The translations under genes and the position numbers were made by a program. Of a DNA stretch of 64,000 bases, positions 4,749 through 63,383 are shown piece after piece. The notes under the pieces are model-generated. The model was given only the letters and a program-made list of their open reading frames with translations, was not told the DNA's origin and made no database searches. This stretch comes from a virus. Taxonomy: Duplodnaviria > Caudoviricetes. The stretch covers positions 831 to 64,830 of IMG/VR virus record IMGVR_UViG_3300033074_001631, one strand, 5' to 3'. How positions within the stretch are numbered: the first letter of the stretch is position 1; each line of letters starts with the position of its first letter.

Positions 4749-5471
4749 TCATTTGTGGATAATTTTTACTAAGGGATCTATACCAGCTTCAACATGCATA
4801 TGATCAGGTAAACATAATTCAAAACCAAAACGTGAATCTAAAGGTAATACTAAATCAGTTTGAGAACCCCATCTAATTAAAGAAAATCTACTATTTTGGT
4901 TAAATCCTTCATTTTGGTCTATTGTAAAAGGAACTATAACATCTACATCTTCATCTGCTATTTGTATCATATAATATGAATATCTTAAAGAAGGAGAATA
5001 AACTTTATTCCACATTCTTTCATTATTTTTTACATAAGGAATCACATGTTTAGGGTTTACTATTCCTTTTAATAAATTCTTTTCAACAGCTAACATAGGT
5101 AAATTATTTGATTCAATAGAATCAAGTTGTTTATACTGTAATATTCCTGGAAAAGGAATCCTATTTATATGAACATCATAAAAAGACATAAATATTCCTA
5201 TAACTAAAGAAGGACTATTATATGTTTTATCCATCATCAAATCCTGAAGAGAATAATTCATTCCCTTTACTTCTACCATAGATTTAGTTGGATCTTTAAC
5301 CAATTTTTGATACAAAATTATACCATCAGCTGGGGAGTAAAAATATTCATTGTTTATATATGTAGGTCTCATAGGATCTCTGAAGAAGAAAGTATTACCT
5401 AATTCTACTAAAGATAATTTTTCTAATTCAGCTACATCAGTATCTAGCCATTCGTCAATAGTTTTAGCCAT
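4749..5471 (-). CDS. psd: Phosphatidylserine decarboxylase-like pyruvoyl enzyme
   Basis: FFRDPMR, SPADG, DVHINRIP and the WGSQT self-cleavage site; no N-terminal membrane anchor. Confidence 0.85.
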   Translation of the reverse strand: MAKTIDEWLDTDVAELEKLSLVELGNTFFFRDPMRPTYINNEYFYSPADGIILYQKLVKDPTKSMVEVKGMNYSLQDLMMDKTYNSPSLVIGIFMSFYDVHINRIPFPGILQYKQLDSIESNNLPMLAVEKNLLKGIVNPKHVIPYVKNNERMWNKVYSPSLRYSYYMIQIADEDVDVIVPFTIDQNEGFNQNSRFSLIRWGSQTDLVLPLDSRFGFELCLPDHMHVEAGIDPLVKIIHK

Positions 5472-5473
5472 CT

Positions 5474-6388
5474 TTATACTAAATCTTTATAATAATCAAT
5501 ATAATTTAAATTCATAACACAACATGAAAGTAAAGCCCCACTTTTAGTAAACTCAGATAAATTAAAAAACACAGGCTCCATTCCCTCTTTAGCACAAATA
5601 GCTTCTAATGAATTTATTTTATGTTTTTCATAATTATAATCTTCATCAGTTTTATTTAATTCAGATATATTAGAAGAACATAATATTAAATTACCCAAAC
5701 GTACTGAATTGGTTATACCCCCGAATGCATCGTCCTCATCAACGTCTATAATTTCGGTATAACGTTCTATATCGCGGATCTCCTCTTCATCGAACATCGC
5801 CGTACAAACCAAAGTTTTATTTTTACTAAGAGGGAAAATGGAACAATCTAAATGATATAAATATTCATCTACCATTTCTACTTCAATAATATTCATATTA
5901 AAATTTTCTTGCATCCATTCATAAGTTTGATAATCTGTTCTTATGCCAGACCCTCCTATATAATTATTATCTCCTATAAATTTTAAATCAGCTTCTCCTT
6001 CCCATTTATAAGGACACATATGGGTATTATACCCCATAAGTTTAAAAAAGGCTTCTCCTACTTTTTCTTCACCTATTCTAGGTTCTGAAGTATAATTTGA
6101 TAATATTATGTTATTTGAGTCTTTTATGTGGGGTAAATATATACCTAAATTAGCAACATATACTTGATCTTGAAAATTTCCAAATGAAGGTAATAGATAA
6201 ACCAAACTATCTCCAGACATGAAATTGTATAAATCCATCCATTGTCTGTAGGCCTTTGTTTTATTTATTTTTGAAGATTCAGGAGATAGTTCTTTTATCC
6301 AAATATTATTTGGGTTTTTATTATCTAATGTAAAAGGAAAATTCATTAAATAACTAGGAATACTTAATTGAGAAGGTGTTTCTTTCAT
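5474..6388 (-). CDS. Amidinotransferase / pentein-family enzyme (arginine dihydrolase- or DDAH-like)
   Basis: DQVYVANLG, RIGEE, WEGEAD, YHLDC and terminal SEFTKSGALLSC (catalytic Cys) follow pentein catalytic spacing. Confidence 0.85.
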   Translation of the reverse strand: MKETPSQLSIPSYLMNFPFTLDNKNPNNIWIKELSPESSKINKTKAYRQWMDLYNFMSGDSLVYLLPSFGNFQDQVYVANLGIYLPHIKDSNNIILSNYTSEPRIGEEKVGEAFFKLMGYNTHMCPYKWEGEADLKFIGDNNYIGGSGIRTDYQTYEWMQENFNMNIIEVEMVDEYLYHLDCSIFPLSKNKTLVCTAMFDEEEIRDIERYTEIIDVDEDDAFGGITNSVRLGNLILCSSNISELNKTDEDYNYEKHKINSLEAICAKEGMEPVFFNLSEFTKSGALLSCCVMNLNYIDYYKDLV

Positions 6389-6407: not shown

Positions 6408-6440
6408 TAAATATACAAAAATTAGTTAAAAAATCAAACT
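6408..6440 (-). promoter_or_regulatory. Bacteroidota-type promoter for the amidinotransferase-psd genes
   Basis: Minus strand GTTTGATTTTTTAACTAATTTTTGTATATTTA (TTTG, then TATATTTA). The TTTG overlaps the integrase stop codon. Confidence 0.5.
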
Positions 6441-7228
6441 AAAAAAGGAATATTTTTAAAATTATTTGCTAATTTAGTATAAATTTGAGTAGATTTTATA
6501 TTATTATGACCTAATAATTTTTGAATTTTGTTTAAATCTACTTTTTGTTCATACAAATGGGTAGCGTAACAATGTCTTAACAAATGAGGATGAAAATCTT
6601 TTCCAAAATATTTCTTAATTATTTTTTGGATAGATCCTCCTGAATATTGAGGTTTGCTTTGACCTTCAAAAAGATAAATCTTAGGAGAACATGTGATATA
6701 ATATTCTCTCAACAGCTTTAAAAGAGGTTCACTTATAGGAACAAATCTATCTTTTGATCCTTTCCCTTGAACTATTTTTATAAGATTTTGTCCCTTTAAA
6801 ATATGTTCAATCTTTAAATTTATTACTTCACTTAATCTTAACCCACAACCATACATTAAATTACATATAGCTTTATGTTTTATATTAGGTATAGAACTTA
6901 AAATATCTTTAATTGTATTATGAGAAACCAATGTAGGAAGGTATTCTCTTTTTTTAGCCCTAACAAACTTATATTTAAATTCTTTTCTCCCTAAAACTTT
7001 TATATATAAAAATCTTAAAGCCGCTATAACTTGATTTTGTTTAGAACGAGAAGAATTTTCAAAGTTATTAAGATATAATTGTATATCTCCCATATTTATT
7101 TTATACGGATTTCTATCTCCTAAAAATTTAATTATTTCTTTTAGATAAATATCGGATGTTTTTAATGAATTGTAGGATTTTGTTAAAATTATTTCCACGT
7201 TTTTAACAAAATTATTATTTAGTCCCAT
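6434..7228 (-). CDS. Tyrosine recombinase, integron-integrase-like N-domain, lacks the IntI I2 insertion
   Basis: Catalytic set intact: GLRLSE, GKGSKDR, HLLRH, LGH, TQIYT. N-terminal SRSKQNQVIAALRFLYIKVL resembles the IntI N-terminal domain. Confidence 0.92.
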   Translation of the reverse strand: MGLNNNFVKNVEIILTKSYNSLKTSDIYLKEIIKFLGDRNPYKINMGDIQLYLNNFENSSRSKQNQVIAALRFLYIKVLGRKEFKYKFVRAKKREYLPTLVSHNTIKDILSSIPNIKHKAICNLMYGCGLRLSEVINLKIEHILKGQNLIKIVQGKGSKDRFVPISEPLLKLLREYYITCSPKIYLFEGQSKPQYSGGSIQKIIKKYFGKDFHPHLLRHCYATHLYEQKVDLNKIQKLLGHNNIKSTQIYTKLANNFKNIPFLV

Positions 7229-7264
7229 ATAACCGTTGATTTTATTGCAGAAGATTTTGGTGAC

Positions 7265-7283
7265 ATCTAACCCCCCGTTATAT
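7265..7283 (+). other. attI-like simple recombination site
   Basis: ATCTAAC-CCCCC-GTTATAT (7-5-7), 37 nt upstream of the integrase start; no long hairpin arms; first GTTA of the array at 7277. Confidence 0.6.
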
Positions 7284-7336
7284 GCAATGCTACATTTCTA
7301 CTTTGTATTAAATTTCGTGGTTATAATCTTTTTGTT

Positions 7337-7963
7337 TTATTTTTTTCCTACGCTCTTTAAAAATGTTGATAATTTAACATCACTTTCGATTAAATTTAGG
7401 TTTTTATCATAAATATCCCAAACCCATTCTTTTGTATTATTCGCATCAATTTTTACATTTACAACACAAGCCACATCAATATTTTTAGTAACATTAAATA
7501 CCACTTGAAATTGTTTATCTCCAGTATTATATACTTTACAAGCATCACTTGACTTAAAAACAATTCCCCAACCACCATATAAAAAATCTTTTTGGTATCT
7601 ACTATCAATTTTCTTGTTAGTTAAATCAAAAGCAAACCCAAAATTACCATCAACAATTTGTTCTTTACTTTTTCTTGTTTTTGTGAATGATGAATAATAT
7701 GCACCAACGCCACGAAATCCATTTTGTAAAATAGAAGTTATATTTTCTTTGGTAGTTGAATGGAATAATAATGTATTTGTTGGTAATTTTATTGCTGAAT
7801 TTGGTTTGTATGAAAAACCTCTTTGTGGTGTATTTTCTAAATTATTAACAACATTGATAAAATCATCAATTGTATTTATTGTTGTAATATCTTTTTTTGA
7901 AACACTCTCCTTTAACATTTTTTCTCTAAATGTATCAATATATTTCCTCATTTCTTGACTCAT
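7337..7963 (-). CDS. Cassette 1 ORF: putative ADP-ribosyltransferase-fold protein (start re-called to MSQEM)
   Basis: LFHSTTKENITSILQNGF H-x-T motif; N-terminal MSQEMRKYIDTFREKMLKE; AATATTTATA late-type motif just upstream of ATG 7963. Confidence 0.6.
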   Translation of the reverse strand: MSQEMRKYIDTFREKMLKESVSKKDITTINTIDDFINVVNNLENTPQRGFSYKPNSAIKLPTNTLLFHSTTKENITSILQNGFRGVGAYYSSFTKTRKSKEQIVDGNFGFAFDLTNKKIDSRYQKDFLYGGWGIVFKSSDACKVYNTGDKQFQVVFNVTKNIDVACVVNVKIDANNTKEWVWDIYDKNLNLIESDVKLSTFLKSVGKK

Positions 7964-8070
7964 AATTTTCTTTATATATAAATATTCAAATTTTAAATTT
8001 TCAACCCACAAAAAATAAAACAAAAAGGTTCATCTCTCGTATTAACTTTTCTACAACATATCCGCACTGC

Positions 8071-8163
8071 ATATAACAAGGTGTATAAGAAAGTTTGCTA
8101 TAAAGTTCAGTGGTAATTGAAAGTTCGTCTAAGCAAACCTTCTCATACACCAAATCGTTATGT
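8071..8163 (+). repeat. attC-like site 1 (93 bp)
   Basis: ATATAAC-AA-GGTGTATAAGAAAGTTTGCT ... AGCAAACCTTCTCATACACC-AAATC-GTTATGT; arms match 18/20. Confidence 0.85.
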
Positions 8164-8174
8164 ACAATACTACC

Positions 8175-8429
8175 TTAGTACCCATAATGACGTTTTTTGT
8201 AATCTTCAAACGCATCCCATATAGTATCTCCTATCCCATAACATTGTGGTGATACATTTTCTTCCATCCATTTATTCAATCTATAATGTGGTTCTTCCCC
8301 AAGTTGTATTTCGTGAATATTAGTATTATCACTTTCAGAATTGAAGATTACTATTTTACCACCGTATCTCATTGTTACTATTGTCAATGGATAAATATCT
8401 TCAATCTTTTCAATTTTGTCTTTTTTCAT
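8175..8429 (-). CDS. Cassette 2 ORF, hypothetical
   Basis: 84 aa, between GTTATGTACA (8157) and TGTACATAAC (8461). Confidence 0.7.
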   Translation of the reverse strand: MKKDKIEKIEDIYPLTIVTMRYGGKIVIFNSESDNTNIHEIQLGEEPHYRLNKWMEENVSPQCYGIGDTIWDAFEDYKKRHYGY

Positions 8430-8463
8430 CTTTTTAAATTTATTTGTTAATAATCCGTACTGT

Positions 8464-8557
8464 ACATAACAAGGTGTATAAAATATAACCTATTATAGTT
8501 CAGTTGTTATTTAAAAGTTTGTGGTTAGGTTACATTTCATACACCCAACCGTTATAA
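8464..8557 (+). repeat. attC-like site 2 (94 bp)
   Basis: ACATAAC-AA-GGTGTATAAAATATAACCT ... AGGTTACATTTCATACACC-CAACC-GTTATAA; arms match 17/19. Confidence 0.85.
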
Positions 8558-8571
8558 GTAATAAAAATATG

Positions 8572-8781
8572 TTACATATCATAGTCTTTCAAACTTTCCA
8601 AAAGATTTTCAATACCTTCTTTGATAAGTCCGTTATATAACCCAACTTTATTCAAGTTATATTTATTTTGTAGTAAATCTTTTTTCAGTTTTTCCAACCA
8701 CATATTTTTACTACTTATAACATCAGATATATTCAATTCTGATGTCTTTTCTTCAAATGTTTTCATGTTTTTAAGTTTCAT
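8572..8781 (-). CDS. Cassette 3 ORF, hypothetical; starts inside attC3
   Basis: 69 aa, MKLKNMKTFEEKTSELNISDVISS; the ISDVISS segment is encoded by the attC3 left arm. Confidence 0.65.
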   Translation of the reverse strand: MKLKNMKTFEEKTSELNISDVISSKNMWLEKLKKDLLQNKYNLNKVGLYNGLIKEGIENLLESLKDYDM

Positions 8782-8846
8782 ATTGTTAAATTAATTTTAT
8801 ACTATATATTAAAAATCAGAACTAAATATATCTGTAACCGTTATCG
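8715..8846 (+). repeat. attC-like site 3 (132 bp)
   Basis: CTTATAAC-AT-CAGATATAT ... ATATATCTG-TAACC-GTTATCG. Confidence 0.75.
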
Positions 8847-8847
8847 G

Positions 8848-9180
8848 TCATGCTAAGAGACGTGCTAACCAATCGACAGTTTTTTGAATTTTACGACCTA
8901 AAAAAGTTTTCGCAAAAGTGTTTTTAAAATCTTTTTTCGCTAAATCTAAATCGTGACTGAGAAACTCGCTTGTGTTTGACAGTTTCCAAATATCTTCATT
9001 ACTAAGTTCTGTCCATTCTCGCATATCAGGTGTTTTATAATGATTTTCGTAAAACAGTTTTAGTTTTTGAAATTTATCAAAACTTATAGTTTTGGGTTTT
9101 TCAAGCCTTTCAATGCGTTTGAATAGGTGAAAGACAACTAAGCAGTTAATGATTAGTGAAATTGAAATTAAGTGTTCCAT
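8848..9180 (-). CDS. Cassette 4 ORF, N-terminally anchored protein
   Basis: 110 aa with a hydrophobic N-terminus; TGA stop overlaps the GTTATCGGTCA cassette start. Confidence 0.7.
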   Translation of the reverse strand: MEHLISISLIINCLVVFHLFKRIERLEKPKTISFDKFQKLKLFYENHYKTPDMREWTELSNEDIWKLSNTSEFLSHDLDLAKKDFKNTFAKTFLGRKIQKTVDWLARLLA

Positions 9181-9218
9181 TTGATTAAATTTTATTTGTT
9201 TGACAATGAAGCACGAAC

Positions 9219-9350
9219 CGATAACAGCACCTACCCAAAAGCGGGGGTGATGTGGTTAAATCGGGTTTTGTGCTTCTATTTAAGTTCATTGTTTATTGAC
9301 AGTTTTCGTTTTCAAAATCCCCGCCTTCGGGTAGCTGCAAACCGTTATAC
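9219..9350 (+). repeat. attC-like site 4 (132 bp)
   Basis: CGATAAC-A-GCACCTACCCAAAAGCGGGG ... CCCCGCCTTCGGGTAGCTGC-AAACC-GTTATAC; arms match 17/20. Confidence 0.85.
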
Positions 9351-9536
9351 ACAATATTTTTTCACTTTTTCACTTCTCTCAATGAAGAAATCTACTCTCT
9401 TTTCTAATTCATCAGAAGTTGCCATCGGTTTAAACTTAATACCGTGGGTATCTACCCAAGTTTTAACATCACAAGCACCATAAGCTTCTTCTTTTAGAAG
9501 TTCTATCAAAATTTCTTTAAGTTTATTTGTTTCCAT
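9345..9536 (-). CDS. Cassette 5 ORF b, hypothetical
   Basis: 63 aa; its TAA stop is the TTA of the cassette-start GTTA (9344). Confidence 0.65.
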   Translation of the reverse strand: METNKLKEILIELLKEEAYGACDVKTWVDTHGIKFKPMATSDELEKRVDFFIERSEKVKKYCV

Positions 9537-9789
9537 TTTTTCTTTGTTTAAGTTTGTTTTCTAATTCCTGAACAGCATTTTTCTTTTCTTCCAATTCTCT
9601 TTCGGATTTCTCAACTTCTTTTTTCAGCTCTTGATGATACTTTTCCATTTTTTTCCATTTAAGAACTGGATTTATTTCTGAATAAATATCATCAAATAAA
9701 TCCTTAATAGTTTTACCAAAAAGTATTTTACTCCAACTTACTTCTTCATTTAGAAAACTTTCCCATTTCTTAATCTTTATATCTTTCAT
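9523..9789 (-). CDS. Cassette 5 ORF a, coiled-coil protein with a head-protein-like leader
   Basis: 88 aa, MKDIKIKKWESFLNEE; C-terminal coiled coil. Confidence 0.65.
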   Translation of the reverse strand: MKDIKIKKWESFLNEEVSWSKILFGKTIKDLFDDIYSEINPVLKWKKMEKYHQELKKEVEKSERELEEKKNAVQELENKLKQRKNGNK

Positions 9790-9844
9790 ATTTAATTGAT
9801 TTATTTTTATTATATATTCTTAAATCAAAGTGAAAAAATACTTT

Positions 9845-9898
9845 GTATAACAAATGATAAACAACATTAAAACGATTGTTTATCATCGGACGTTAGCG
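9845..9898 (+). repeat. attC-like site 5 (54 bp, shortest)
   Basis: GTATAAC-AA-ATGATAAACAA-CATTAAAACGA-TTGTTTATCAT-CGGAC-GTTAGCG; perfect 11-bp arms. Confidence 0.85.
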
Positions 9899-10168
9899 GC
9901 AATCTTGAATGACGTTCACGCTACTAATTTCATCCCATTTTCCGAGAACTCTAACATACATTACTTTTCCGCAGGTGTCTATTACTACATATCTATACTC
10001 TTTGTCTGGTAAGGCGTAAACTTTTGCCTTTGGATACGCTTTTTCAACTGTTTCCATACACCTGCTATTATCAAGTGATTTATTTACGTCACTACAAGAA
10101 GTAAAGACTGCCGCTAACATCGCATATACGGCAATAGCGGCTACTGTGCTAATTTTAAAGTTTTTCAT
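9893..10168 (-). CDS. Cassette 6 ORF, putative lipoprotein
   Basis: Signal peptide ending FTSC. The signal peptide is encoded within attC6, and the stop is the TTA of GTTA 9892. Confidence 0.7.
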   Translation of the reverse strand: MKNFKISTVAAIAVYAMLAAVFTSCSDVNKSLDNSRCMETVEKAYPKAKVYALPDKEYRYVVIDTCGKVMYVRVLGKWDEISSVNVIQDCR

Positions 10169-10245
10169 TTCTATTTTACTTTTGTGGTTAATTCAACTTT
10201 TGTGCCTTGAAGCCCGCACGAACGGCAAGCCACAAAACGTTAGCG
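10112..10245 (+). repeat. attC-like site 6 (134 bp, poorly matched arms)
   Basis: CGCTAAC-AT... ...CAAAAC-GTTAGCG. The ends are intact but the inner arms barely pair. Confidence 0.6.
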
Positions 10246-10467
10246 AGCATAACAGATACAACTACCTTCACTATATCCTTTACATCGTTCACAGTAAGTC
10301 CAACTATCTTTAAACTCTTCCCAATCAACCCAATCATATTCATCTTGCCAAGCAAATAACTTCTCCAAATAATATTCAGAGTTACGCTCGCTAACATCAA
10401 GTAAACGCAAGTTTTCTTCCGTTATCTTTGATGTTAGTTTTTCAATTTTACTTTTGAATATATTCAT
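10240..10467 (-). CDS. Cassette 7 ORF, small protein with a C-terminal Cys cluster
   Basis: 75 aa, ends CERCKGYSEGSCICYAR; starts inside attC7; stop lies in GTTA 10239. Confidence 0.65.
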   Translation of the reverse strand: MNIFKSKIEKLTSKITEENLRLLDVSERNSEYYLEKLFAWQDEYDWVDWEEFKDSWTYCERCKGYSEGSCICYAR

Positions 10468-10521
10468 AATGTTGTTCCTTAAATTAAGTGAAAACCTGCG
10501 TTTACTTGCGGTACGTTAGGT
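10389..10521 (+). repeat. attC-like site 7 (133 bp)
   Basis: CGCTAAC-AT-CAAGTAAACGCA ... TGCGTTTACTTG-CGGTAC-GTTAGGT; perfect 12-bp arms. Confidence 0.85.
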
Positions 10522-10527
10522 GCAATG

Positions 10528-10785
10528 CTATTCGACACCATCACGATAAAATTTCTTATTCAAATTATGACAAGCAATCATTACATCTTCATAAGCACCT
10601 TTATATCGTGTCTTATTTTCGTTGTGAGTATCTATCACTTCCCATTTGTTATTTACACAAATCTTTTGAAATCTTCTTTCGGTGCTTATACTTGGCATTT
10701 TTACTTGTTCTTTAATTATTTCAATCATCTTTTCAAGTTTTGTGAGAAGCACTGCACCTAACAGCAAGTAAGCAATAGTTGCCAA
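10528..10785 (-). CDS. Cassette 8 ORF, hypothetical; starts inside attC8
   Basis: 85 aa; MATIAYLLLGAVL is encoded by the attC8 left arm. Confidence 0.55.
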   Translation of the reverse strand: MATIAYLLLGAVLLTKLEKMIEIIKEQVKMPSISTERRFQKICVNNKWEVIDTHNENKTRYKGAYEDVMIACHNLNKKFYRDGVE

Positions 10786-10849
10786 TAACTTCTCGGTTAA
10801 TAATTAAGTTCATCGTAGGCAACCATCGCCTACTTGCGAATCGTTAGCA
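10756..10849 (+). repeat. attC-like site 8 (94 bp)
   Basis: ACCTAAC-A-GCAAGTAAGCAATAGTTGCC ... GGCAACCATCGCCTACTTGC-GAATC-GTTAGCA; arms match 17/20. Confidence 0.85.
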
Positions 10850-10864
10850 CCAATAGCTACCTTA

Positions 10865-11152
10865 CTACTTCTTCTTTGGCTTAACATTTTTTACTTCACC
10901 AGTTGTTGTGTTTTTTAACTGAATATTTTTCAATTCATTTTTGCCATCATCAATCCAAATAAATTTAACTTTAGCAATATCAGAGTTCATTTTACCCTTA
11001 TATTCTTCACGCTCTTTTATTTTGGCAAAAGTTTGATTTACTTGATTAAGCCAAAGAAGAAAATCAATTGACAATCTTTCAAAATTTTCAGGCGTAGTTA
11101 CATTAACCAATTGCTCTAATGTTTCAATTTCGTATTTTTTTACTTTACTCAT
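10865..11152 (-). CDS. Cassette 9 ORF, hypothetical
   Basis: 95 aa, between GTTAGCACCA (10843) and TGTTGCTAAC (11185). Confidence 0.7.
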   Translation of the reverse strand: MSKVKKYEIETLEQLVNVTTPENFERLSIDFLLWLNQVNQTFAKIKEREEYKGKMNSDIAKVKFIWIDDGKNELKNIQLKNTTTGEVKNVKPKKK

Positions 11153-11187
11153 TCTATTTATGTTTTTATGTTAATAATCCGTACTGT

Positions 11188-11281
11188 TGCTAACAAGGTA
11201 TATATGCAATACCCTACTAAGGTTTATACTAAATTTTAAAGTTTCGGCTTCGGGTACTGCATATATGCCCAGCCGTTAGTT
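11188..11281 (+). repeat. attC-like site 9 (94 bp, last in the array)
   Basis: TGCTAAC-AA-GGTATATATGCAATACCC ... GGGTACTGCATATATGCC-CAGCC-GTTAGTT; arms match 16/18. Confidence 0.85.
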
Positions 11282-11282
11282 G

Positions 11283-11456
11283 CTATCTGTTTTTGTTCTT
11301 TTTTGTCCCACGCACTTTGGTTTTTTCAAAACCATTAGATTTTGATTCTCGTTCCAAAATATCCTGTGCCAAGTTTTTAAAATCTGTGTTCTCATCAATG
11401 GCTCTTTTGCTCAATGATTTTACACATTCATCTGATAGGTCAAGTAGTTTTTTCAT
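11283..11456 (-). CDS. 57-aa ribbon-helix-helix-like DNA-binding protein (not in ORF track)
   Basis: Hand translation MKKLLDLSDECVKSLSKRAIDENTDFKNLAQDILERE...; beta-helix-helix pattern; ATGA-type overlap with 11453..11758. Confidence 0.5.
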   Translation of the reverse strand: MKKLLDLSDECVKSLSKRAIDENTDFKNLAQDILERESKSNGFEKTKVRGTKKNKNR

Positions 11457-12667: not shown

Positions 12668-14149
12668 TTATGAAAAATTTTTCACAAATTTAGTGGTTCC
12701 ACAATCCCATATTTTAGTATAACCCAATTCTTCCATGATTTCAAATTCGGTTTTATTAACATCACAACCCATTTTTTTTAATATTTTTTTATTAAAATTA
12801 AATCTATGATATCTTTTTAAATAATCTTTAGTATAAAAATAATTAGGAGAAGATTCTTTTTCTTTTTTAAATCCAATTTTTAAATACATATTATTATTAG
12901 GATCTGTCCATCTGTTATCTGAATATGAATATATTTTAGTAGGATTAAAATTTTTTATAAAAAAATTTAATAACTTTGAAGCTCCTCCTATTACATTATA
13001 TTTAGTAGCATATCTTGATAATTCATATATTTTTTTATCATTTTTATTTCCCCCCAAAGCAATTCTAGGATGAGAAAAAGTCATCACAGCCACTAATTCT
13101 TCTTTTAAAAATAAACCCAATTTTATTGAACTTCTATCAGATCCTTGTATATGGTAATTATCTAAAAATTGGTTTTTTTCTTTAAACAATATTTCTTTTA
13201 TAGAACATTTTCTAGCATATATTTTTGTTTCTGTAATATTTAATACAGAACGTAATTTATTTTTAACTATGTTTTTTTTATTTAACCATTCATCTGAAAA
13301 TATTTGTATTAATCTAATGTTATTATCGATAGCTTGTTTATATTTATTAAAATGATAATCTTTAAATCTATTAGCTTTTTCTGAATGCCAATATAGTCCA
13401 TTATATTCTATTCCTATATTTAGTTCGGGTAAATATATATCTATTTCATTTTTAGGAAAAAGTCTAACATTTGTTTTAATTTCTCCTTTATATATATTTT
13501 TTATAAATTCTAATAATTCTAATTCTTCCTTAGATTGTTTACCTATGTTAGAAAATACTTCCCAATCCCAGTGCCCTTTTATATAATCTCTATGATATGT
13601 TTCTTTACCTAAATCACAATTTTTACCATTTTCTAGTATAGAAACAGGTTCTCCACAACCACATTTACATGCAGGTATTTTGTTATCTAATACATATTTT
13701 ATTATATATTCAGATTTAGATATATTAGAATGTTTTTTTGTTATATGGTACATTAAATGTTGATTACTTTTAACCTTTTCACCACATATATTACATTTGA
13801 ATAAAGATTGTTCTTTTAATTTATTTTCTTTAATATTTTTAGGTCTAAATTCTCCATATTTAATAATATATTCTTCAGTTTTAATATTATGGGCCCACTT
13901 CAAATGCATTGCCATAGATCTTACTGATTCAGAAGAATTACATATTTTACATAAAACTTCATTTCTTTTGTCTCTGGTTGATTTTAATGAAAAATTTTCA
14001 TGTTCAAATCTCCAAACATACCCCCCAGCAGTTTTATATTTTCCTTCACAACACCTTAAAATAGAATCTCTATTAGAAATTTTTACATCTTTTATATCAT
14101 TATATAACTTTACTAAATGTCCTTCTAAAGAATATTGTTTTATTTTCAT
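12668..14149 (-). CDS. Composite homing endonuclease-like protein (NUMOD1, zinc fingers, Vsr/Hef-like nuclease, GNAT-like C-terminus)
   Basis: CCEGKYKTAGGYVWRF (NUMOD1); CxxC...HxxxxH fingers; EIDIYLPELNIGIEYNGLYWH; YELSRY...GGASKL...YSDNRW. Confidence 0.7.
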   Translation of the reverse strand: MKIKQYSLEGHLVKLYNDIKDVKISNRDSILRCCEGKYKTAGGYVWRFEHENFSLKSTRDKRNEVLCKICNSSESVRSMAMHLKWAHNIKTEEYIIKYGEFRPKNIKENKLKEQSLFKCNICGEKVKSNQHLMYHITKKHSNISKSEYIIKYVLDNKIPACKCGCGEPVSILENGKNCDLGKETYHRDYIKGHWDWEVFSNIGKQSKEELELLEFIKNIYKGEIKTNVRLFPKNEIDIYLPELNIGIEYNGLYWHSEKANRFKDYHFNKYKQAIDNNIRLIQIFSDEWLNKKNIVKNKLRSVLNITETKIYARKCSIKEILFKEKNQFLDNYHIQGSDRSSIKLGLFLKEELVAVMTFSHPRIALGGNKNDKKIYELSRYATKYNVIGGASKLLNFFIKNFNPTKIYSYSDNRWTDPNNNMYLKIGFKKEKESSPNYFYTKDYLKRYHRFNFNKKILKKMGCDVNKTEFEIMEELGYTKIWDCGTTKFVKNFS

Positions 14150-14233: not shown

Positions 14234-15835
14234 TTATATGGTATTTAAACCACTAACATAAATTTTAGCATAAAATTCTGGTCTTAACATTTTCTTTGCA
14301 TATCTTGTTAATAGACCTTTTCTTGGTGTAAAGGTATCAGGATCGTACACTAACGGAGTCATCACTAACGGAATATAAGGAGCAAATACAGCACCGGCTT
14401 CCAAAAACTGACTACCTCTAAATCCTAATAGAATAGTATTCTCAGTCATATAAGGGTTTTTATAGATGTTATATCTACTATTTAAAGAACCTACTTTTTG
14501 TACACCAAAAGCATATTGCATTTGAGCAGCATCTCCATTTGAATTAGCAGCAAACCCAGGAATTGATTCAAAGATAGTTGCTACTGTAGGAGAACATACT
14601 AAGAAATTAGCTCCACCTCTTAAAGTTAATTGGTGAATTTTATTACTCAATTTTTGTACTTTAGTACCAAGAGTTTGGAACCATCCTCCTTGAGTATTGT
14701 AATATCCTGAAGATAATGTTTCAAATGCAGTCCCACCACTGTTAATAACAGTATTGTTTACAGCTGACCAATATTCAGTTCCAGCAGCTGCATCTTGAAT
14801 TAACATATCTAATATTTCAAGGTCAATCTCCATAGAAATATATTCAGACATTATGTTTGTTAATTCTGCTTCTGCATCGATGTTTTGGTATGCACTTAAG
14901 TCTTGTGCATATTCAGGAGTCCAAACAGCCTTTAATTTACGTGTTTTAGCCACAATTGCTTGTGATTGCATTTTCACATTAATCTCAGGTATTGAAATAG
15001 GATTATTATCTGCATTTAATTGAGTGTTACCATCTTCGAAGTCACCTCTTTTATTATCAGCAGTAGCTAATGAATGAGATACTAAAATAGTAGGAGCAGC
15101 AGCTATTACTGTTGAACCAGTAACTACGAAAGTTACAGCAGATCCATTAGTTGAAGTAAATGCAGGCAAATAATCTAATTGAGCACTTCCTGAATAAGGA
15201 ACAAAGCTTCTAACAGCTTCAAAATCAGTTGATGAAGGTAATGTAACTGTTAAAGTTTTATATTGACCAAAAGAAGATGAATAATTTGAGTCAAAATTAA
15301 ATGTTGCCCAAGTAGTTGACCCTGAAGCAGCTGCTGCTGTTGAAGAAGTAGTATTTATTGTATAACTAAATCTTCCAGCTCCATACAAACCACCTGCGGC
15401 TGAAGGAGTAGCAAAAGGATAATTACTTCCTGTATTTCCATATAATGAAGAACCTGCACTAAAAGGGGCTTTATTAGTTCCATATTGGAAATCTAAATAA
15501 AATACTAGTCCTGAAGGTAAGTTCATTGGTTGAACAGAAACAAATTCCTTAGCTACAATTTGACCAAATACTTTACGTACTAAAGGAAGAGCAATACCTG
15601 CCCAGTTTTCACCTGTTCCTACTGTAAAAGTGTTATTTACTGTAGAAGTAGTGGAATTTTCTGTTACCAATTGTTTAGCTTGGTTTTCCAACATGATAGC
15701 CATGTTATTTGAATCAGTTTCACCTAATCCCTCTAAAAGTCCTGTTTTAGCCCATTTTGCTGCTAATCTTTTAGCATCACTTTGAACTGACTTCCAAGGA
15801 TTAGAAGATTCTAATAATGATTGAATAGTGTCCAT
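14234..15835 (-). CDS. Major capsid protein (T4 gp23-like)
   Basis: VQPMNLPSGLVFY, VAKTRKLKAVWTPEYAQDL, FAPYIPL and TRYA motifs. Confidence 0.95.
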   Translation of the reverse strand: MDTIQSLLESSNPWKSVQSDAKRLAAKWAKTGLLEGLGETDSNNMAIMLENQAKQLVTENSTTSTVNNTFTVGTGENWAGIALPLVRKVFGQIVAKEFVSVQPMNLPSGLVFYLDFQYGTNKAPFSAGSSLYGNTGSNYPFATPSAAGGLYGAGRFSYTINTTSSTAAAASGSTTWATFNFDSNYSSSFGQYKTLTVTLPSSTDFEAVRSFVPYSGSAQLDYLPAFTSTNGSAVTFVVTGSTVIAAAPTILVSHSLATADNKRGDFEDGNTQLNADNNPISIPEINVKMQSQAIVAKTRKLKAVWTPEYAQDLSAYQNIDAEAELTNIMSEYISMEIDLEILDMLIQDAAAGTEYWSAVNNTVINSGGTAFETLSSGYYNTQGGWFQTLGTKVQKLSNKIHQLTLRGGANFLVCSPTVATIFESIPGFAANSNGDAAQMQYAFGVQKVGSLNSRYNIYKNPYMTENTILLGFRGSQFLEAGAVFAPYIPLVMTPLVYDPDTFTPRKGLLTRYAKKMLRPEFYAKIYVSGLNTI

Positions 15836-29941: not shown

Positions 29942-30399
29942 TCTGGTTTATTGTTTAATTTTTTCCAATTTAATTTTTTTATTTTAACTTTATCTTCAAT
30001 ATAAAATTTTCTATAGGATTCTATTACATCATTTGTTTTATATATCTCAGGCATACACATTGGAGGAGTTTTAAACCCATTGTTAGATATATTAGGTTTA
30101 TTATCTCGAAGCCATTCAAGCACATCCTTTGTTTTATGTTTTTTACCATATCTTTTTTCAAATTCATTGCATATTTCTAACCCATGTTCCACTAACCATA
30201 AATATTGAGGGAGAGATTCTCTTGCCCACTTTGTTGAAGGATGATTAACATGAGCACGTTTATAAGGAGCAGATGAACCTGTTTCCCAATGTGCTGTACA
30301 ACACATTTGTGCGCTTTCTATTTGCATTTTACGGATATGATCATCTGCTAATTCACGAGCCGCAACAATTGGATCTTCATTGATGTAAAATATATTCAT
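29884..30399 (-). CDS. Pyrimidine-dimer DNA glycosylase-like protein
   Basis: MNIF, DDHIRKMQIESAQM, HVNHPSTKW, PPMCMP and YRKFY motifs. Confidence 0.8.
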   Translation of the reverse strand: MNIFYINEDPIVAARELADDHIRKMQIESAQMCCTAHWETGSSAPYKRAHVNHPSTKWARESLPQYLWLVEHGLEICNEFEKRYGKKHKTKDVLEWLRDNKPNISNNGFKTPPMCMPEIYKTNDVIESYRKFYIEDKVKIKKLNWKKLNNKPEWVLEQEYTNSQILKENHI

Positions 30400-31759: not shown

Positions 31760-32342
31760 TATATGTTCCTGGTTTTAGTTTTTTATTAAATATTAAAGAA
31801 CCTGCCCCAAAATCATCATATGAAGTTCCTATAAAATTTATTCCATCATATTTGTATAATAATCTATTAGATAATAGATCTCCATCTTTTTTATTTAATA
31901 TATCATCTATATAATTGTAAAATATTTTTTTAGTTTCTTGTTTGTTCAAAGATAAATATTCTGAAAATACATCTATAGCATCTTCTATATATTCTTGGGT
32001 TTCATTTGATTTTAGGTCTTCTTTTTTTAATCCGTTTAAATAATAAGTTATAGCTTTAATATTTTCATAAAAATTTTCAGGATCAGAAGGAGAATATAAA
32101 TTGTATTTAGACAAATCTATTTTAGATAAAACACCATAGTTGAGATCAGATTTTAATTTTTTGGCTTTATCTAAATCCCCCATAAAATAATATCCAGTTC
32201 CTAATAACCCTGTTTTAGATTTAGCTAAACCAAATCCTCTATCTTTCAAGGTTTCTGCAGGAGATAATGGTTCAAATTTCCCAGCACGATACCCAATATT
32301 TTCATTTAGAATTTTGTTTAATATAGGTTTTAATTTTAACAT
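31746..32342 (-). CDS. Hypothetical, possible ART-fold protein
   Basis: GYRAG...GLLGTGYYF pattern after an ILNE leader. Confidence 0.4.
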   Translation of the reverse strand: MLKLKPILNKILNENIGYRAGKFEPLSPAETLKDRGFGLAKSKTGLLGTGYYFMGDLDKAKKLKSDLNYGVLSKIDLSKYNLYSPSDPENFYENIKAITYYLNGLKKEDLKSNETQEYIEDAIDVFSEYLSLNKQETKKIFYNYIDDILNKKDGDLLSNRLLYKYDGINFIGTSYDDFGAGSLIFNKKLKPGTYNEIN

Positions 32343-37593: not shown

Positions 37594-40500
37594 ACTTTCT
37601 CATGATCATTCCTGCATAACTTTGGGCATCATTTTCTATCGGATCTCCATCTTTTCCATCTCCAGGTTTAATCATGTTATTTTTATTTTGCCAACAATGT
37701 CTTAATTCATGAACTAAAGTAACACAACTATCTCTAAGGTTTCTTCCCTCAATTACTATATATATTTCATTATTTTCAGGATTATATCCTCCAAAACTTT
37801 TATTTTCTTGAGCGTAATCCTTATTTTTTATTATTATTTTTGGCTTTTCAATTTTTAAATCTTTACAAACATATTCAACTAATTTATTTATATATAATAT
37901 ATGTTTTTTAAATTTTTTATTTTTGTTTTCTTTAATAAAATCATTAGATTTTTTTAGTACTACCATTTTTCCAGTATTTCCTTGGTAAACAAAAGGTAAA
38001 TTAGCTGTTTTTTTAAAATATCCAGGTAAATTGTTGTTTTGAATTAAATTGTTGTATATATTATGATAATTTTTAGTTTCATTATTATCCATTGAAGATA
38101 TTGCTATATAATCTGGTTTTTCTTTATAAACAAAATCTACTATTATTTTATACATGGTAGATAATATCTTAATATATTCTTTTCCTGTTATGTTTTTTGT
38201 AGGGATATCAGTAACTATTCCTTTAGGATGAAATTGAATGTTATAAAACAATCCTAAATCTTTATAAGGATTAGGCATATTTTTTATTGAATATTCATAT
38301 TCTATATCCCCTACTTTAAAATATCCTCCAAATATGTCTCCTTCTATTTTAACTGCATTATTAGTTGATAATTTTATTTCACACAAAGATTCATATAATA
38401 TATTGTAAAAACTTTTAATATAATTATGTTTAGGAATATTTATTTCTAATATATTTTTATCTATTGGTTGTTTTTTTATATTCTTTAAATGAAAAACTAA
38501 ATAATCAATTCTATTTTCTTCAGGTAATATAACTCCATCATGCCCCATATTTATTAATTCTCCTACAGAATATTTTTCATATTCTTCCCAAGTTGCTGGG
38601 TTTTCTAATGTTATATATCTCGTCAAAATATTTTTATTTCCTAAGGCTCCTGTTTCTCCTTTTTTTATACTGTCTTTATTATCAGTAAACCATATTCCAT
38701 CCCATACATAATCAAGATCAAATTCATCAAATTCTGAATTAGTCCCATGATATACTTTAAGATTTTTTATTTTGGTTTCTTTTAATAATTCTTTATCTAT
38801 TTCTTTTGTTTTTAAATTAACTAATTTTTCTATATATTTTGAATTCCTTAATTCTTTAAAAACTAAATTTTCAATAGAATATTCTCCTTCTTTTTCTAAT
38901 CCTGATTTTCGCATATTTTTTATGTAATCATACAATTTTTGAACTTTATTTAATTCAGGATTTTGAATCAAATTATCTATTTCTTGTTTGATTATGTTTG
39001 CTTTATCATTTATTTGTTTGTCAGGAATTAATATTTGTTCATATTTAGGTTTTTTTATCCATTTATCTTGAATCAACGAATATACTCCTTGGGCAGCATT
39101 GGGTTCATTTGTGTCTTGAACATAAACCTCTATGTAATTATTTTTTATTTTTAAATCGTGGGTTTTATTCCATGAATTCTTGGCTTCAGTAAAATATTTA
39201 CTTGTAATTTCTGGATCTTTGAATTTTTTTAAATCAACCAAAATATGAACATCTATATCTGAATATTGGTTCCAATTGTAGTTTGCAGAACTTCCTAATA
39301 ATATAATATCTTCATATGGAACATCCAAATCTAATGAATTCCAAAAATGTTCTGCTATTTTTAGTAAAACTTTTTTTACTTTAGGTTTAATATTATCTCC
39401 ATCAAAAATTACAGGATTAAGTTTCTTTTGATTTTCATATTCATTAACTAATTCTTCTTCATATTCTAATTCATTGTCTGGGTCAGCATGTATTAATGTA
39501 TCTTCAAATTCTTCTTTTGATATTTCTTTTTCTTTAGTAAAAAATTTAAATTTAGGATTATTTATGTTTGTTAATAAAAAATCTTTAGTTACAGACCAAT
39601 TGCTTCCAAAATAATTTTTTGTTATATTATCTAATAGAAAATCATAAGACATTACATAATTATCTAAATCCTCTACTTCTGGTTTGTCGTAATTCTTATC
39701 AAAAGGAATTCTTTCTTCTCTTTCGTCAGTTGAATGTTCTTTATTTTTTGTTTTTTGATTAAAATAATTAAAAGGTTCTATTCTATATTTATTAGAAAGT
39801 TTATCTCCATCTATTACTATTCTGACATCAGGAGGAAAAATAAGTTGAGTAAAACCTTTCCAAAAATCTTTATTTCTCGTAAAAGATATTGATATAACAT
39901 CTTTTTGGTTATTTCTAGGGTTTCTTTCTAGTTTCCCGCTGGACATTAATTTATTAGATTCAAAAATAGAAGGAAAATTATCCATGCTAGTAAAATGATA
40001 AATAATTCCTACTTGTTTAGCCTCATCTACTTTTTCAATTTTAGATAATTTATCATAATATTTAGGATCTTCATATAAATGATCCATAGCTATTTCTCTT
40101 GCTATGGATTTACTATTTGTATGCTCTAATTCAACTTTAATTCCTTTTTTTAGTTGAGATCTTAAATCAGGTAATAAATTTTTATAATCATAATAATCCC
40201 CAGCATGTTTTTTTGCTATATTATACAAACTCATTCCTTTAGATAATCCTCCAGGAATTTTTTCTCCTTCAGGTATTAATCTATAAAAATCTTCTAAAAT
40301 ATAACCTTCAGGAAGAGATTTATATAATATTTCTTTGTTTCCTTCTTTTAAAGCAACTCTTATTTGAGAAGAACTTATATTTTCTACATCCCCCCCATCA
40401 AAAACTACAGCATTAGAATAATTTTTTATTAAAGATTTAAATCTACTACTATCTTTTTTTCCAAATACCGCCAAATAATTATTATTTTCATTATTTTTTA

Positions 40501-63294: not shown

Positions 63295-63309
63295 AGTAGA
63301 TAATATATG

Positions 63310-63383
63310 TACTTTTGGTAGGATTCGAACCCACATTTTCTGATCCGTAGTCAGAGGTTTTTATCCAGTTAAACTACAAAAGT
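63310..63383 (-). tRNA. tRNA-Arg (anticodon ACG)
   Basis: Acceptor ACTTTTG/CAAAAGT, D-stem GTTT/AAAC, anticodon arm TCTGA-CTACGGA-TCAGA, T-arm GTGGG-TTCGAAT-CCTAC; no encoded CCA. Confidence 0.88.

Follow-up and report, generated by a model that had tools for sequence, protein, structure and literature searches.

Can a phage carry its own platform for capturing and exchanging gene cassettes, as integrons do for bacteria? This question is raised by a locus in the 64-kb stretch of phage DNA analyzed here (hereafter the window), where a recombinase gene adjoins a row of small, hairpin-bounded genes. An earlier note had read the locus as an integron-like platform inside a phage, comprising a recombinase, an attI-like site, and cassettes opened at G|TTA. 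That reading is supported by unit-wise turnover among relatives, an empty site in the cultured phage Freya_1, and the absence of a phage/host chimera. We consider a phage-owned, integron-like gene-cassette platform quite probable, with catalysis by the recombinase, a single-stranded substrate, and circular intermediates being inferred. It would mean that a phage recombinase manages without a protein domain thought to be essential to integron recombination.

Architecture of the cassette array

The unit-bounded array of nine cassettes that had been noticed in the window is confirmed. In total, 10 G|TTA sites across 7277-11275 form the borders of nine units, and the last of these, at 11275, ends the array as had been claimed. 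All 18 strings quoted in the earlier note occur once each, at the positions given there, with its unit ‘end’ coordinates denoting the first base of the end repeat. Likewise, the tails at the start and end of a unit are reverse complements, except in C9, where they differ by one base. Among the 27 copies of CGTTA in the 64-kb window, 12 lie within 7200-11300, including the 10 that mark unit borders; of the 11 copies of TAACG in the window, none falls in the array region. The array shares its GC content and strand with the phage. The features are listed below, with scores for R1, a covariance model built from 15 junction elements.

6434-7228, minus strand: tyrosine recombinase gene, 264 aa, Xer/IntI-like, without the IntI-specific insertion
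7259-7286, no strand assigned: attI-like core, consisting of a left arm, a 5-nt spacer, and G|TTA plus the cassette 1 tail
7278-8157, minus strand: cassette C1, ORF 7337-8023 (228 aa, weak PARP-like match), attC-like J1 8068-8160 (R1 98 bits)
8158-8551, minus strand: cassette C2, ORF 8175-8429 (84 aa), attC-like J2 8461-8554 (R1 98 bits)
8552-8840, minus strand: cassette C3, ORF 8572-8781 (69 aa), attC-like J3 8712-8843 (R1 36.5 bits)
8841-9344, minus strand: cassette C4, ORF 8848-9180 (110 aa), attC-like J4 9217-9347 (R1 46.4 bits)
9345-9892, minus strand: cassette C5, two ORFs (9345-9536 and 9523-9789), attC-like J5 9844-9895 (short, 48-nt)
9893-10239, minus strand: cassette C6, ORF 9893-10168 (91 aa), atypical junction J6 10109-10242
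10240-10515, minus strand: cassette C7, ORF 10240-10467 (75 aa), attC-like J7 10386-10518 (R1 46 bits)
10516-10843, minus strand: cassette C8, ORF 10528-10785, attC-like J8 10753-10846 (R1 76 bits)
10844-11275, minus strand: cassette C9, ORF 10865-11152 (95 aa), attC-like J9 11185-11278 (R1 101 bits)

The ORFs of C3 and C7 start within the loops of their own junctions, J3 and J7, while the loop of J4 contains a 34-aa leader ORF (9185-9289). The ORF of C8 probably starts at an internal ATG. Judged by eye, the C6 product has a lipoprotein-like N-terminus. The array end and the next ORF (11283-11456) recur in G001, where they close a second array that lies 10 kb from the recombinase gene.

Hairpin junctions and tail logic

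Eight of the nine window junctions are attC-like imperfect hairpins with strong covariation. The claim that a hairpin follows each unit end stands for these eight, while J6 is atypical, with perfectly matching R-box ends and no L-box stem. A geometric scan of the window, for TAAC and GTTA enclosing a looped stem of 11 or more pairs that is set off by 1-3 nt from TAAC and by 4-6 nt from GTTA, returned seven sites, all within the array and in a single orientation, and none elsewhere in the 64 kb. In 200 composition-preserving shuffles, the same scan found no site in 189 and one site in 11. A custom covariance model had been proposed as a check, and R1 recovers seven of the nine junctions without any further match in the window; it misses J6 and the 48-nt short form J5, the latter being recovered by the geometric scan. 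The consensus fold of the elements displays compensatory changes in 18 of 26 pairs.

The variable tails beside the core are more telling than the hairpins themselves. In 47 consecutive cassettes from eight arrays, the five variable bases next to the core find their partners across the ORF at a mean of 4.38 of 5 positions (perfectly in 33 cassettes), as opposed to 1.69 of 5 inside one hairpin and 1.79 at random. The earlier observation that tails pair within a cassette better than across a junction is thereby upheld, and this tail logic is the trace that crossovers between different sites leave when they fall at the core.

The genes point towards attI, with a hairpin upstream of each of them. 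In 21 of 56 cassettes the ORF starts within this upstream hairpin and reads through its GTTA core; none of the 56 cassettes has an ORF crossing the other core, and many ORFs stop inside it. In 67 of 71 elements the gene-sense strand has the more stable fold, owing to G.U-type pairs. In a chromosomal array of Catalinimonas with classical gene polarity, on the other hand, the antisense strand is the more stable one in 9 of 11 elements, indicating that the bias tracks the polarity of the site and not the mRNA.

The recombinase and the attI-like site

The recombinase matches PF00589 (3e-35) and PF13495 in Pfam, and its closest solved structure is XerA (4a8e, 8e-33). It scores 168.9 bits against the NCBIfam model XerA_Arch (cut-off 220) and falls below the cut-offs of the XerA, XerC, and XerD models. 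Against the integron integrase model TIGR02249 it reaches 151.8 bits (cut-off 265), in two pieces covering profile positions 5-179 and 256-303. When aligned with VchIntIA (2a3v), its residues 207/212 correspond to 209/264, so the IntI-specific insertion is absent, whereas the catalytic residues R131, K156, H215, R218, H241, and Y250 are invariant in A1. Of the integrase said to adjoin the cassettes, what remains is a Xer/IntI-like tyrosine recombinase and no IntI. A search of one genome per species revealed no relatives of the enzyme. As a separate observation, the 48-nt hairpin turned up in the search of species-representative genomes in only one 1.4-kb contig, assigned to a MAG.

The attI-like core is found upstream of the recombinase gene, 48 nt from the start codon, and resembles the L'-spacer-R' half of the attC elements as well as a dif-type core. 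The same layout (TAAC, G, 5 nt, imperfect inverted arm) is present at an equal distance from the start codon in L003, L005, L008, and L009.

Cassette turnover among related phages

The same system is found in many distinct large phage genomes. In all related contig loci examined with R1 or the geometric scan, the observed linkage to the recombinase is constant: arrays lie at the 5' side of its gene in one orientation, with L012 yielding one R1 match only. Phage P12002L contains elements of the family without a recombinase gene.

Unit-wise gain and loss between conserved flanks, which the earlier note had asked of related phages, is observed between L005 and L008. These have flanking genes in common on both sides (62-85% and 75% amino-acid identity), with 4 versus 19 cassettes in between and no array ORF in common. 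Homology between the window and L003 extends from the recombinase over attI to J1, C1 included, and breaks off exactly at the next G|TTA. A contig from a wastewater metagenome of another study (X1, record 2) equals the window over 6880-7281 and continues with 63 nt that are unlike it. As far as sequence can tell, it thus holds that an identical recombinase-attI stretch is joined to a different first cassette in another metagenome. In other metagenome contigs, the match to the window starts or stops precisely at a core, namely that of C5, C6, or C8: in the X3 contigs the match sets in exactly at 9343 (C5), in record 28 at 9891 (C6), and record 30 matches only 10514-10763 (the C8 region), with unlike DNA on either side.

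Cultured phages tell the same story. The Polaribacter phages Freya_1 and Freya_10, whose recombinase is 34% identical to that of the window, match at 100% identity over flanks of 1,200 nt and 2,000 nt and differ by exactly 4,942 bp with 12 small ORFs. In Freya_10 this DNA is inserted after AAC, 50 nt upstream of the recombinase gene, which is the equivalent attI-like core; Freya_1 thus provides the empty site that had been predicted. A chimeric assembly of phage and host can be set aside, as phage genes lie on both sides and contigs from the sample bridge both array ends.

Two findings qualify this picture. The core of J5 is 100% identical to an L008 element with unrelated flanks on both sides, and unrelated ORFs have common end ‘frames’ of 19-25 nt, such as those common to C8 and an unrelated L008 cassette, which means that the arrays are also shaped by homologous recombination or some other process. 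Moreover, L007 and L008, from two metagenomes, have an identical array order, so turnover is not very fast.

Proposed mechanism and alternative explanations

In the mechanism that we propose, the small Xer/IntI-like recombinase (6434-7228) would recombine the attI-like core (7259-7286) with attC-like hairpins, crossing over at G|TTA as read on the plus strand. Cassettes could thus be inserted beside the recombinase, excised, and swapped with a pool common to related phages. Each consists of one attC-like element followed, in gene sense, by one or two small ORFs ending at or just before the crossover. In contrast to the genes of classical integron cassettes, all ORFs run in the direction of phage transcription, towards attI and the recombinase. 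By inference, the likeliest substrate is the gene-sense (window minus) strand in its folded form, in which R-box and L-box helices would be parted by a one-sided bulge of 4-5 nt, with G.T pairs in the stems. A single strand exchange may then be resolved by replication, like in integrons and CTX-phi.

Critically speaking, three points count against the platform in addition to those named above (J6 without its L-box, identical hairpin cores between unrelated flanks, the end frames around unrelated ORFs, and the shared array order of L007 and L008). No recombination product, circle, or cleavage has been directly observed. The recombinase lacks the insertion reported to be necessary for IntI activity (Messier and Roy 2001, as cited in PMC4792948). 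Finally, P12002L_attC1 (Qi et al. 2023), a member of the hairpin family modelled here and its sole tested one, was the only one of six phage sites that IntI1 did not recombine (PMC9892861); this fits a different enzyme specificity and equally fits an inactive site.

The alternative that survives best, though improbable, holds that the hairpins are regulatory or structural elements of mRNA or genome in the style of T4 hyperplastic regions, exchanged by homologous recombination without involvement of the recombinase. The better fold of the gene-sense strand through G.U-type pairs, the start codons in loops of long hairpins, the hairpin families up to 100% alike between unrelated flanks, and the common end frames around unrelated ORFs all speak for it. 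However, homologous exchange inside hairpins does not predict tails that pair across the ORF instead of the hairpin, and the breakpoints fall exactly at the 4-nt core. The hairpins also have no terminator-like sites, no excess of promoter-like sites, and no Rfam match; they keep one orientation and one place with respect to the recombinase gene throughout the related loci, and the stable strand of the bacterial relative is antisense to its genes.

We give still less credence to the recombinase being a lysogeny integrase or genome-dimer resolvase beside a relic CALIN that is serviced, if at all, by an integron integrase of the host. Isolators of flavobacterial phages did interpret genes of this kind as pointing to a temperate lifestyle (PMC8776804), and both the recombinase-less P12002L and the distant second array of G001 agree with it. 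Against it stand the resemblance of the core next to the gene to one half of the attC elements and the Freya_10 insertion exactly there. Moreover, Bacteroidetes very rarely have IntI-type integrons (PMC9024848), the tested family member was not recombined by IntI1 (PMC9892861), and the species-level searches gave no enzyme relative and the 48-nt hairpin only in the MAG-assigned contig.

An ordinary IntI-type integron acquired from a host chromosome or plasmid is very unlikely. Its layout of recombinase, attI, attC-bounded cassettes, and AAC/GTT cores agrees, and temperate phages with such captured pieces are known (PMC9892861), but it is already contradicted by the missing insertion, and the score below the curated cut-off, the reversed gene polarity, the phage-like GC content and strand, and the presence of the system in many distinct large phage genomes also speak against it. 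Equally remote are miniature inverted-repeat transposable elements landed between phage genes, as near-identical copies with unrelated flanks and terminal inverted repeats on each element are outweighed by absent target-site duplications, tails that mismatch around one element and match across each gene, a single orientation, the presence of just one element at each gene border and invariably next to the recombinase, and the lack of copies outside the array in the 64-kb window by either search.

Comparison with known systems

The T4-type hyperplastic regions hold mobile regulatory cassettes of promoters and stem-loops that spread by homologous exchange without a recombinase. They resemble the present array in having small accessory phage genes between repeated stem-loops and modular content between relatives; unlike them, the array has no promoter or terminator signal, obeys the tail logic, and has breakpoints that coincide exactly with the core. 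The pdif modules of Acinetobacter plasmids are gene modules bounded by inversely oriented Xer-type sites and found in different contexts, using plain 28-bp duplex sites and the host XerC/D. The phage sites, in contrast, are hairpins with cassette-specific tails, and their spacer is only 2 nt on one side, leaving no workable duplex core.

Xer itself acts at dif, and folded single-stranded CTX-phi DNA integrates Xer-dependently. The phage system shares with these a simple Xer-type enzyme and, by inference, a folded single strand with an unpaired centre as the substrate, and its attI-like core, like dif, has a 7-nt centre flanked by a pair of imperfect inverted arms with TAA/TTA ends. A discussion of CTX-phi is given in PMC4792948. 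Unlike Xer/dif, with one site per replicon, the phage has arrays of many gene-bounding sites and encodes its own enzyme, which stays below the Xer cut-offs.

The closest likeness is to integrons, especially to sedentary chromosomal ones whose attC sites are homogeneous, for example the Vibrio cholerae array. In both, a tyrosine recombinase gene adjoins attI, and small, mostly unannotated ORFs lie between imperfect palindromes with R/L boxes, AAC/GTT-type cores, and variable loops of 48-140 nt. Both also have homogeneous site families within an array, cassette content that turns over between relatives, and mutually complementary cassette ends resulting from crossover at G|TT. The phage enzyme differs in its missing insertion and its score below the IntI cut-off; attC lies upstream of the ORF, which reads towards attI instead of leading away from a Pc promoter; the unpaired spacer bulges out on one side only, by 4-5 nt, and G.T pairs replace the classical extrahelical bases; and the core is GTTA/TAAC, in a large phage genome.

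The earlier note's remark that integrons are hardly described from phages is roughly right, but ‘never’ would be wrong, since a 2023 study had already reported pieces of integrons, as well as attC clusters that lack an integrase, from phage genomes (Qi et al. 2023, PMC9892861). With its IntI-based detection, that study could see no more than clusters without the integrase or, in temperate phages, IntI integrons of host origin, and we found no description of a recombinase-linked phage cassette system in the literature. Its CALINs resemble the present array in that phage-borne attC-type sites bound small genes, several of theirs being DNA methyltransferases (PMC9892861). Features of the present system that go undescribed there are a phage-encoded, array-linked recombinase, an attI, and reversed gene polarity.

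Genomic Setting

The cassette locus belongs to a large genome, since the 64.8-kb source record (26% G+C), of which the window is nearly the whole, is estimated to be only 40% complete. The minus strand holds nearly all window ORFs of at least 120 aa. To the left of the locus lie PhoH, a phosphatidylserine-decarboxylase-like gene, and an amidinotransferase-like gene, and to the right of the array lie an HNH endonuclease, the major head protein, the portal, and the large terminase. The features referred to here are the following.

4749-6388: phosphatidylserine-decarboxylase-like and dimethylargininase/amidinotransferase-like genes, directly downstream of the recombinase
6434-7228, minus strand: tyrosine recombinase gene, 264 aa
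7259-7286: attI-like core
7277-11275: nine cassettes (C1 to C9) with attC-like junctions J1 to J9 and ten G|TTA borders
12668-14149: HNH homing-endonuclease-like gene, 493 aa, immediately adjoining the major head gene
14234-15835: major head gene
63309-63383, minus strand: tRNA-Arg (ACG), a single gene

The two genes at 4749-6388 look like auxiliary metabolic genes. The earlier note had allowed for a chimeric assembly of phage and host DNA; no sign of this was seen, and contigs probably derived from the source sample span the flanks into both array ends.

Hairpins, Borders, and the attI-Like Core

Every sequence string quoted in the earlier note is present once, at the position it gave. All ten cassette borders read C-GTTA on the plus strand, and CGTTA is concentrated in the array region (12 of its 27 window copies), from which the reverse complement is absent. 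Between the units lie imperfect hairpins of one geometry: TAAC, 2 nt, stem, loop, stem, 5 nt, GTTA. A geometric scan requiring at least 11 stem pairs returned seven window sites, all inside the array and in a single orientation; 200 shuffles under the same scan gave none in 189 cases and one in 11.

A covariance model (R1) was built from fifteen aligned elements of ~88 nt each, drawn from three related contigs as well as the window. Compensatory changes occur at 18 of the 26 pairs in their consensus fold. Within the window, R1 matched J1, J2, J3, J4, J7, J8, and J9 and nothing else; J5 is a 48-nt short form of the same geometry, and J6 is atypical (its R-box ends match perfectly, and the L-box stem is missing). 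With the exception of J6, the traits of attC sites are present, namely R''-L''...L'-R' boxes, AAC/GTT cores, and variable sequence, at lengths of 48-140 nt. Among related loci, R1 found 19 elements in L008, further arrays in L003, L005, L007, L009, L011, L013, L019, L023, and L024/25, a lone element in L012, and a second array in contig G001. The latter (L014 14159-17135 and 24113-24234) has at least six elements in the same orientation, ~10 kb from the recombinase, and its last site and following ORF match window 11187-11305 and the ORF at 11283-11456.

Rfam gave no match to the hairpins; no terminator-like sites were found, and promoter-like sites occur at shuffle level. In GTDB, the 48-nt hairpin was found solely in one 1.4-kb contig assigned to a MAG, which we take as a stray phage fragment. 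A 34-aa ORF (9185-9289) lies wholly within the J4 loop, its stop 2 nt ahead of the C4 start codon, and may be a leader or coupling ORF.

The array starts at the attI-like core next to the recombinase gene. In the window and in L003, L005, L008, and L009, 48 nt separate this core from the recombinase start codon downstream of it. Its components are, in order, the first-cassette tail, TAAC, G, five bases, and an imperfect inverted arm, an arrangement similar to the L'-spacer-R' half of the hairpins and, as we read it, to a dif-type site with a 7-nt centre; the function of the core as attI is inferred. A site adjoining the integrase at the head of the array, as expected of an attI, is present, given the conserved core, the start of the array, and an exact insertion in a cultured phage, Freya_10.

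Own-Tail Complementarity

The decisive regularity lies in the cassette tails. The five variable bases beside the core pair with the other end of their own cassette at 4.38 of 5 positions (47 consecutive cassettes from eight arrays), and perfectly so in 33 of the 47. Most low values fall where about 500-1,800 nt separate the elements found, so that a missed element is probable. Pairing of the tail with the other half of the same hairpin reaches only 1.69 of 5, the random level being 1.79. Because the tails pair across the ORF and not within the hairpin, each array hairpin is a hybrid of two cassettes. Judged by sequence, such hybrids have the appearance of integron attC sites after putative G|TT crossovers. 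A crossover at G|TT had already been claimed, and the own-tail pairing supports it together with the homology breaks at the core.

Polarity, Strand, and Cargo

The recombinase gene diverges from the array, which is the classical layout relative to attI and site asymmetry. A classical integron cassette, however, consists of a promoterless ORF followed by attC and is read away from attI/Pc, and the window cassettes fail this description: their genes lie on the opposite strand, so that in gene sense the hairpin comes first and the ORF second. Of 56 cassettes, 21 have an ORF whose start lies 40-70 nt within the loop of the hairpin and whose reading frame continues across the GTTA core, whereas no ORF among the 56 crosses the other core; the TAA of TAAC serves as the ORF stop in 14 cases. 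Since ORFs cross the GTTA core and never the other, the crossover (the G|TTA of the earlier note) must lie at the gene 3' end, and the hairpin is part of the same cassette as the gene that follows it.

Recurrent A.C mismatches in the plus-strand stems become G.T pairs on the minus strand, and the minus strand (the sense of recombinase and genes) is the more stable fold in 67 of 71 elements. In classical attC sites, extrahelical bases set the strand choice, whereas here we find a one-sided 4-5-nt bulge and the recurrent G.T positions.

The cassette ORFs are small (median 79 aa) and mostly without a family match, PHROGs and Pfam returning nothing for most of them. Named matches are an MT-A70 methyltransferase, an N6/N4 methyltransferase, and an ART-PolyVal ADP-ribosyltransferase domain, and C1 has a weak PARP-like match. 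A counter-defence role of this cargo is plausible, its function being untested. The proteins at L003:2641-3333 and L011:3691-4251 share the same 17-residue N-terminus and then differ, one of them carrying the ART-PolyVal domain; C1 begins with a motif similar to this N-terminus.

Turnover Among Relatives

Loci L005 and L008 have their array-flanking genes in common, at 62-85% and 75% amino-acid identity on the two sides. Between these conserved flanks L005 holds 4 cassettes and L008 holds 19, with zero ORFs in common, which is the unit-wise gain and loss that had been predicted for relatives. Homology between the window and L003 covers the recombinase, attI, the ends of cassette 1, and J1, and breaks off precisely at the G|TTA that follows. 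Another study's wastewater run contains a contig that matches 6880-7281 with no differences, after which come 63 nt unlike the window. A second wastewater study yielded contigs matching C5, C6, and C8, each from the exact CGTTA; the one matching C8 also ends at the TAAC of that cassette, with DNA unlike the window on both sides.

Other signals are weaker. Four joints (7280 to 9341, 9362 to 9835, 7345 to 7971, and 7988 to 11173) have a shorter side of 20-26 nt, too short to count; among them may be a joining of attI to a C5-type unit, as well as cassette 'frames' that carry different cargo or none. Differences in depth between cassettes and backbone in metagenome runs X1 and X3 (available as contigs only; uncovered parts unused) are merely a hint.

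Some hairpin cores are identical although the DNA on either side of them is unrelated. The enzymes of L013 and the window share only 46% identity, yet one L013 hairpin matches J1 at 92%. The first cassettes of the window and L003 have common ends and different ORFs. Between C8 (10490-10860) and L008:6760-7190, the 19 bases after CGTTA and the 25 before TAAC are identical, and the ORFs and hairpins are unrelated despite these common ends. One-sided crossovers do not explain shared end 'frames' of 19-25 nt with exchangeable cargo. To judge from these frames and the identical cores, some additional process, perhaps cassette genesis or gene conversion, acts on the arrays.

Cultured Phages

Ten isolates of Polaribacter phage Freya from one host have seven genome lengths, from 43,978 to 48,920 bp, and carry a recombinase 34% identical to that of the window. 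R1 gave only weak matches on Freya_10 and on a second cultured Polaribacter phage, Leef_1; their sites are too diverged for the model, and the genomes were therefore compared directly. Around one point, which lies 50 nt upstream of the recombinase gene, Freya_1 and Freya_10 show 100% identity (1,200 nt on the left, 2,000 nt on the right); at this point Freya_10 has exactly 4,942 additional bp with twelve small ORFs. This insert follows an R-box-like AAC, ends in another, and sits exactly at the equivalent attI core. The whole 4,942-bp difference between these two isolates thus falls at the recombinase-adjacent site, and because the extra DNA is present only in Freya_10, Freya_1 is a natural empty site. 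An empty site had been predicted for the window's own locus as well; that form, attI joined to 11275, is not among the joints listed.

Leef_1 has small ORFs immediately upstream of its integrase (L017 5529-5736 and 5743-5904) that are flanked by inverted repeats of 19-20 nt, perhaps a diverged version of this cassette logic.

A further Polaribacter phage, P12002L (L032), lacks the recombinase gene and has five R1 matches among methyltransferase and Mom-like genes.

30000-30064, gene sense: attC-like element
32215-32289, gene sense: attC-like element
38027-38098, gene sense: attC-like element
38871-38944, gene sense: attC-like element
39114-39253, gene sense: attC-like element

One of these is P12002L_attC1 of Qi et al., called by HattCI and the sole one of six phage sites that was not recombined by IntI1 (PMC9892861).

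A Chromosomal Array

The chromosome of Catalinimonas alkaloidigena encodes a 280-aa relative of the recombinase (49% identical), also without the IntI insertion. Eleven ORFs follow it in an array (L026 10001-20843) with classical polarity and own-tail complementarity; a group II intron reverse transcriptase marks its far end, and the recombinase gene is preceded by phage-like genes. At 9 of 11 junctions the stabler strand is antisense to the genes, so that strand bias tracks the polarity of recombination and not the transcript, which argues for a role of the fold at the DNA level.

The Recombinase

The 264-aa enzyme has a SAM-like N-domain (PF13495) and a catalytic domain (PF00589), as in simple tyrosine recombinases. 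The RKHRHY catalytic set is present, its residues being invariant in an alignment of relatives (A1), and the best solved relative is XerA (4a8e). The additional domain specific to IntI (the I2 region, inside the catalytic domain) is absent from the window recombinase. We infer this from the match to TIGR02249, which is split into two pieces (profile 5-179 and 256-303, ~45 residues missing), and from the alignment with solved VchIntIA, which jumps from 209 to 264 at query residues 207/212. The insertion is also missing from all close relatives tested, the longer ones being extended at the N-terminus instead. According to Messier and Roy (2001, cited in PMC4792948), IntI needs the insertion for its activity, and PMC8138268 describes it as essential to integron function.

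XerA-type and integron-integrase models score the enzyme about equally, and it misses every curated cut-off: 151.8 bits against 265 for the integron integrase, 168.9 against 220 for XerA_Arch, 144.7 against 329.6 for XerD, and 140.8 against 335 for XerC. Its relatives reach 163-241 bits on the integron-integrase model, all under the cut-off of 265. Xer enzymes act at one dif site per replicon for dimer resolution, whereas the window has ten sites in an array.

Metagenomes hold more than 40 recombinase clusters at ≥56% identity, some on contigs of 126-261 kb, which are annotated as XerD only. A metagenome scan added just one close locus (L019), and no relative of the recombinase emerged from a pattern scan of GTDB limited to a single genome per species, a weak negative in view of the narrow patterns.

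Proposed Mechanism and Alternative Explanations

In the mechanism that we propose, the recombinase would bind attI as duplex DNA together with a hairpin formed by folding of the gene-sense strand, and phage replication would supply the single strands. Cleavage after TAA in that strand (plus-strand G|TTA) would exchange one strand, and replication would resolve the product, as in integrons and CTX-phi. Transcripts through the array would express the cassette genes and then the recombinase. Only sequence-level consequences have been shown; the chemistry, including excision of circles and insertion at attI, is inferred.

The hairpins could instead be regulatory elements and the units shuffled by homologous recombination. 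Alternatively, the enzyme could be a lysogeny integrase or a resolvase beside an unrelated relic array; in the paper describing Freya, the recombinase gene is taken merely to suggest that lysogeny may occur (PMC8776804). The locus could also be a captured IntI integron. Each of these explanations is contradicted by the own-tail pairing, the precision of the breakpoints, the unvarying linkage to the recombinase, or the absent I2 domain. The same holds for a reading of the hairpins as MITEs, which would be dispersed copies with terminal inverted repeats and target-site duplications; in the window no copies lie outside the array, and the flanks of a single element do not match each other.

A more far-reaching reading is that a lineage of short Xer/IntI-like recombinases without I2 performs true integron-type recombination of folded single-stranded attC with attI in Bacteroidota phages and in some Bacteroidota chromosomes (there with classical polarity), a claim for which we judge belief and doubt to be evenly balanced.

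Comparison with Known Integrons

Integrons are defined by IntI, whose extra domain is regarded as necessary for acting on folded attC sites, and searches based on IntI find them almost only in bacteria. The cassette logic here is apparently run by a plain Xer-like enzyme in phage genomes, with the cassettes reversed to suit phage transcription. IntegronFinder/HattCI would probably file the window as a CALIN (an attC cluster without IntI). IntegronFinder 2.0 reported almost no integrons in Bacteroidetes (PMC9024848), and Qi et al. (2023) described host-derived IntI integrons in temperate phages together with 17 integrase-less phage attC clusters (PMC9892861). In the literature on integrons in phages and Bacteroidetes we found no arrays linked to an insertion-less Xer-like recombinase (the search was incomplete and is no proof), and the Freya description paper gives no account of recombinase-linked arrays.

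The Freya isolates offer a cultured test bed for the cassette system. Should the enzyme be shown to act as proposed, the Xer-type origin of integrons (PMC4792948) would become directly testable, phages would have a way to trade small accessory genes singly, and current integron finders would have missed a whole class. Under the more far-reaching reading, phages would hold an exchangeable library of accessory and counter-defence genes, e.g., methyltransferases and ADP-ribosyltransferases. If that reading is true, integrons can function without the I2 domain, and systems lacking it either preserve the ancestral condition or arose as integrons independently.
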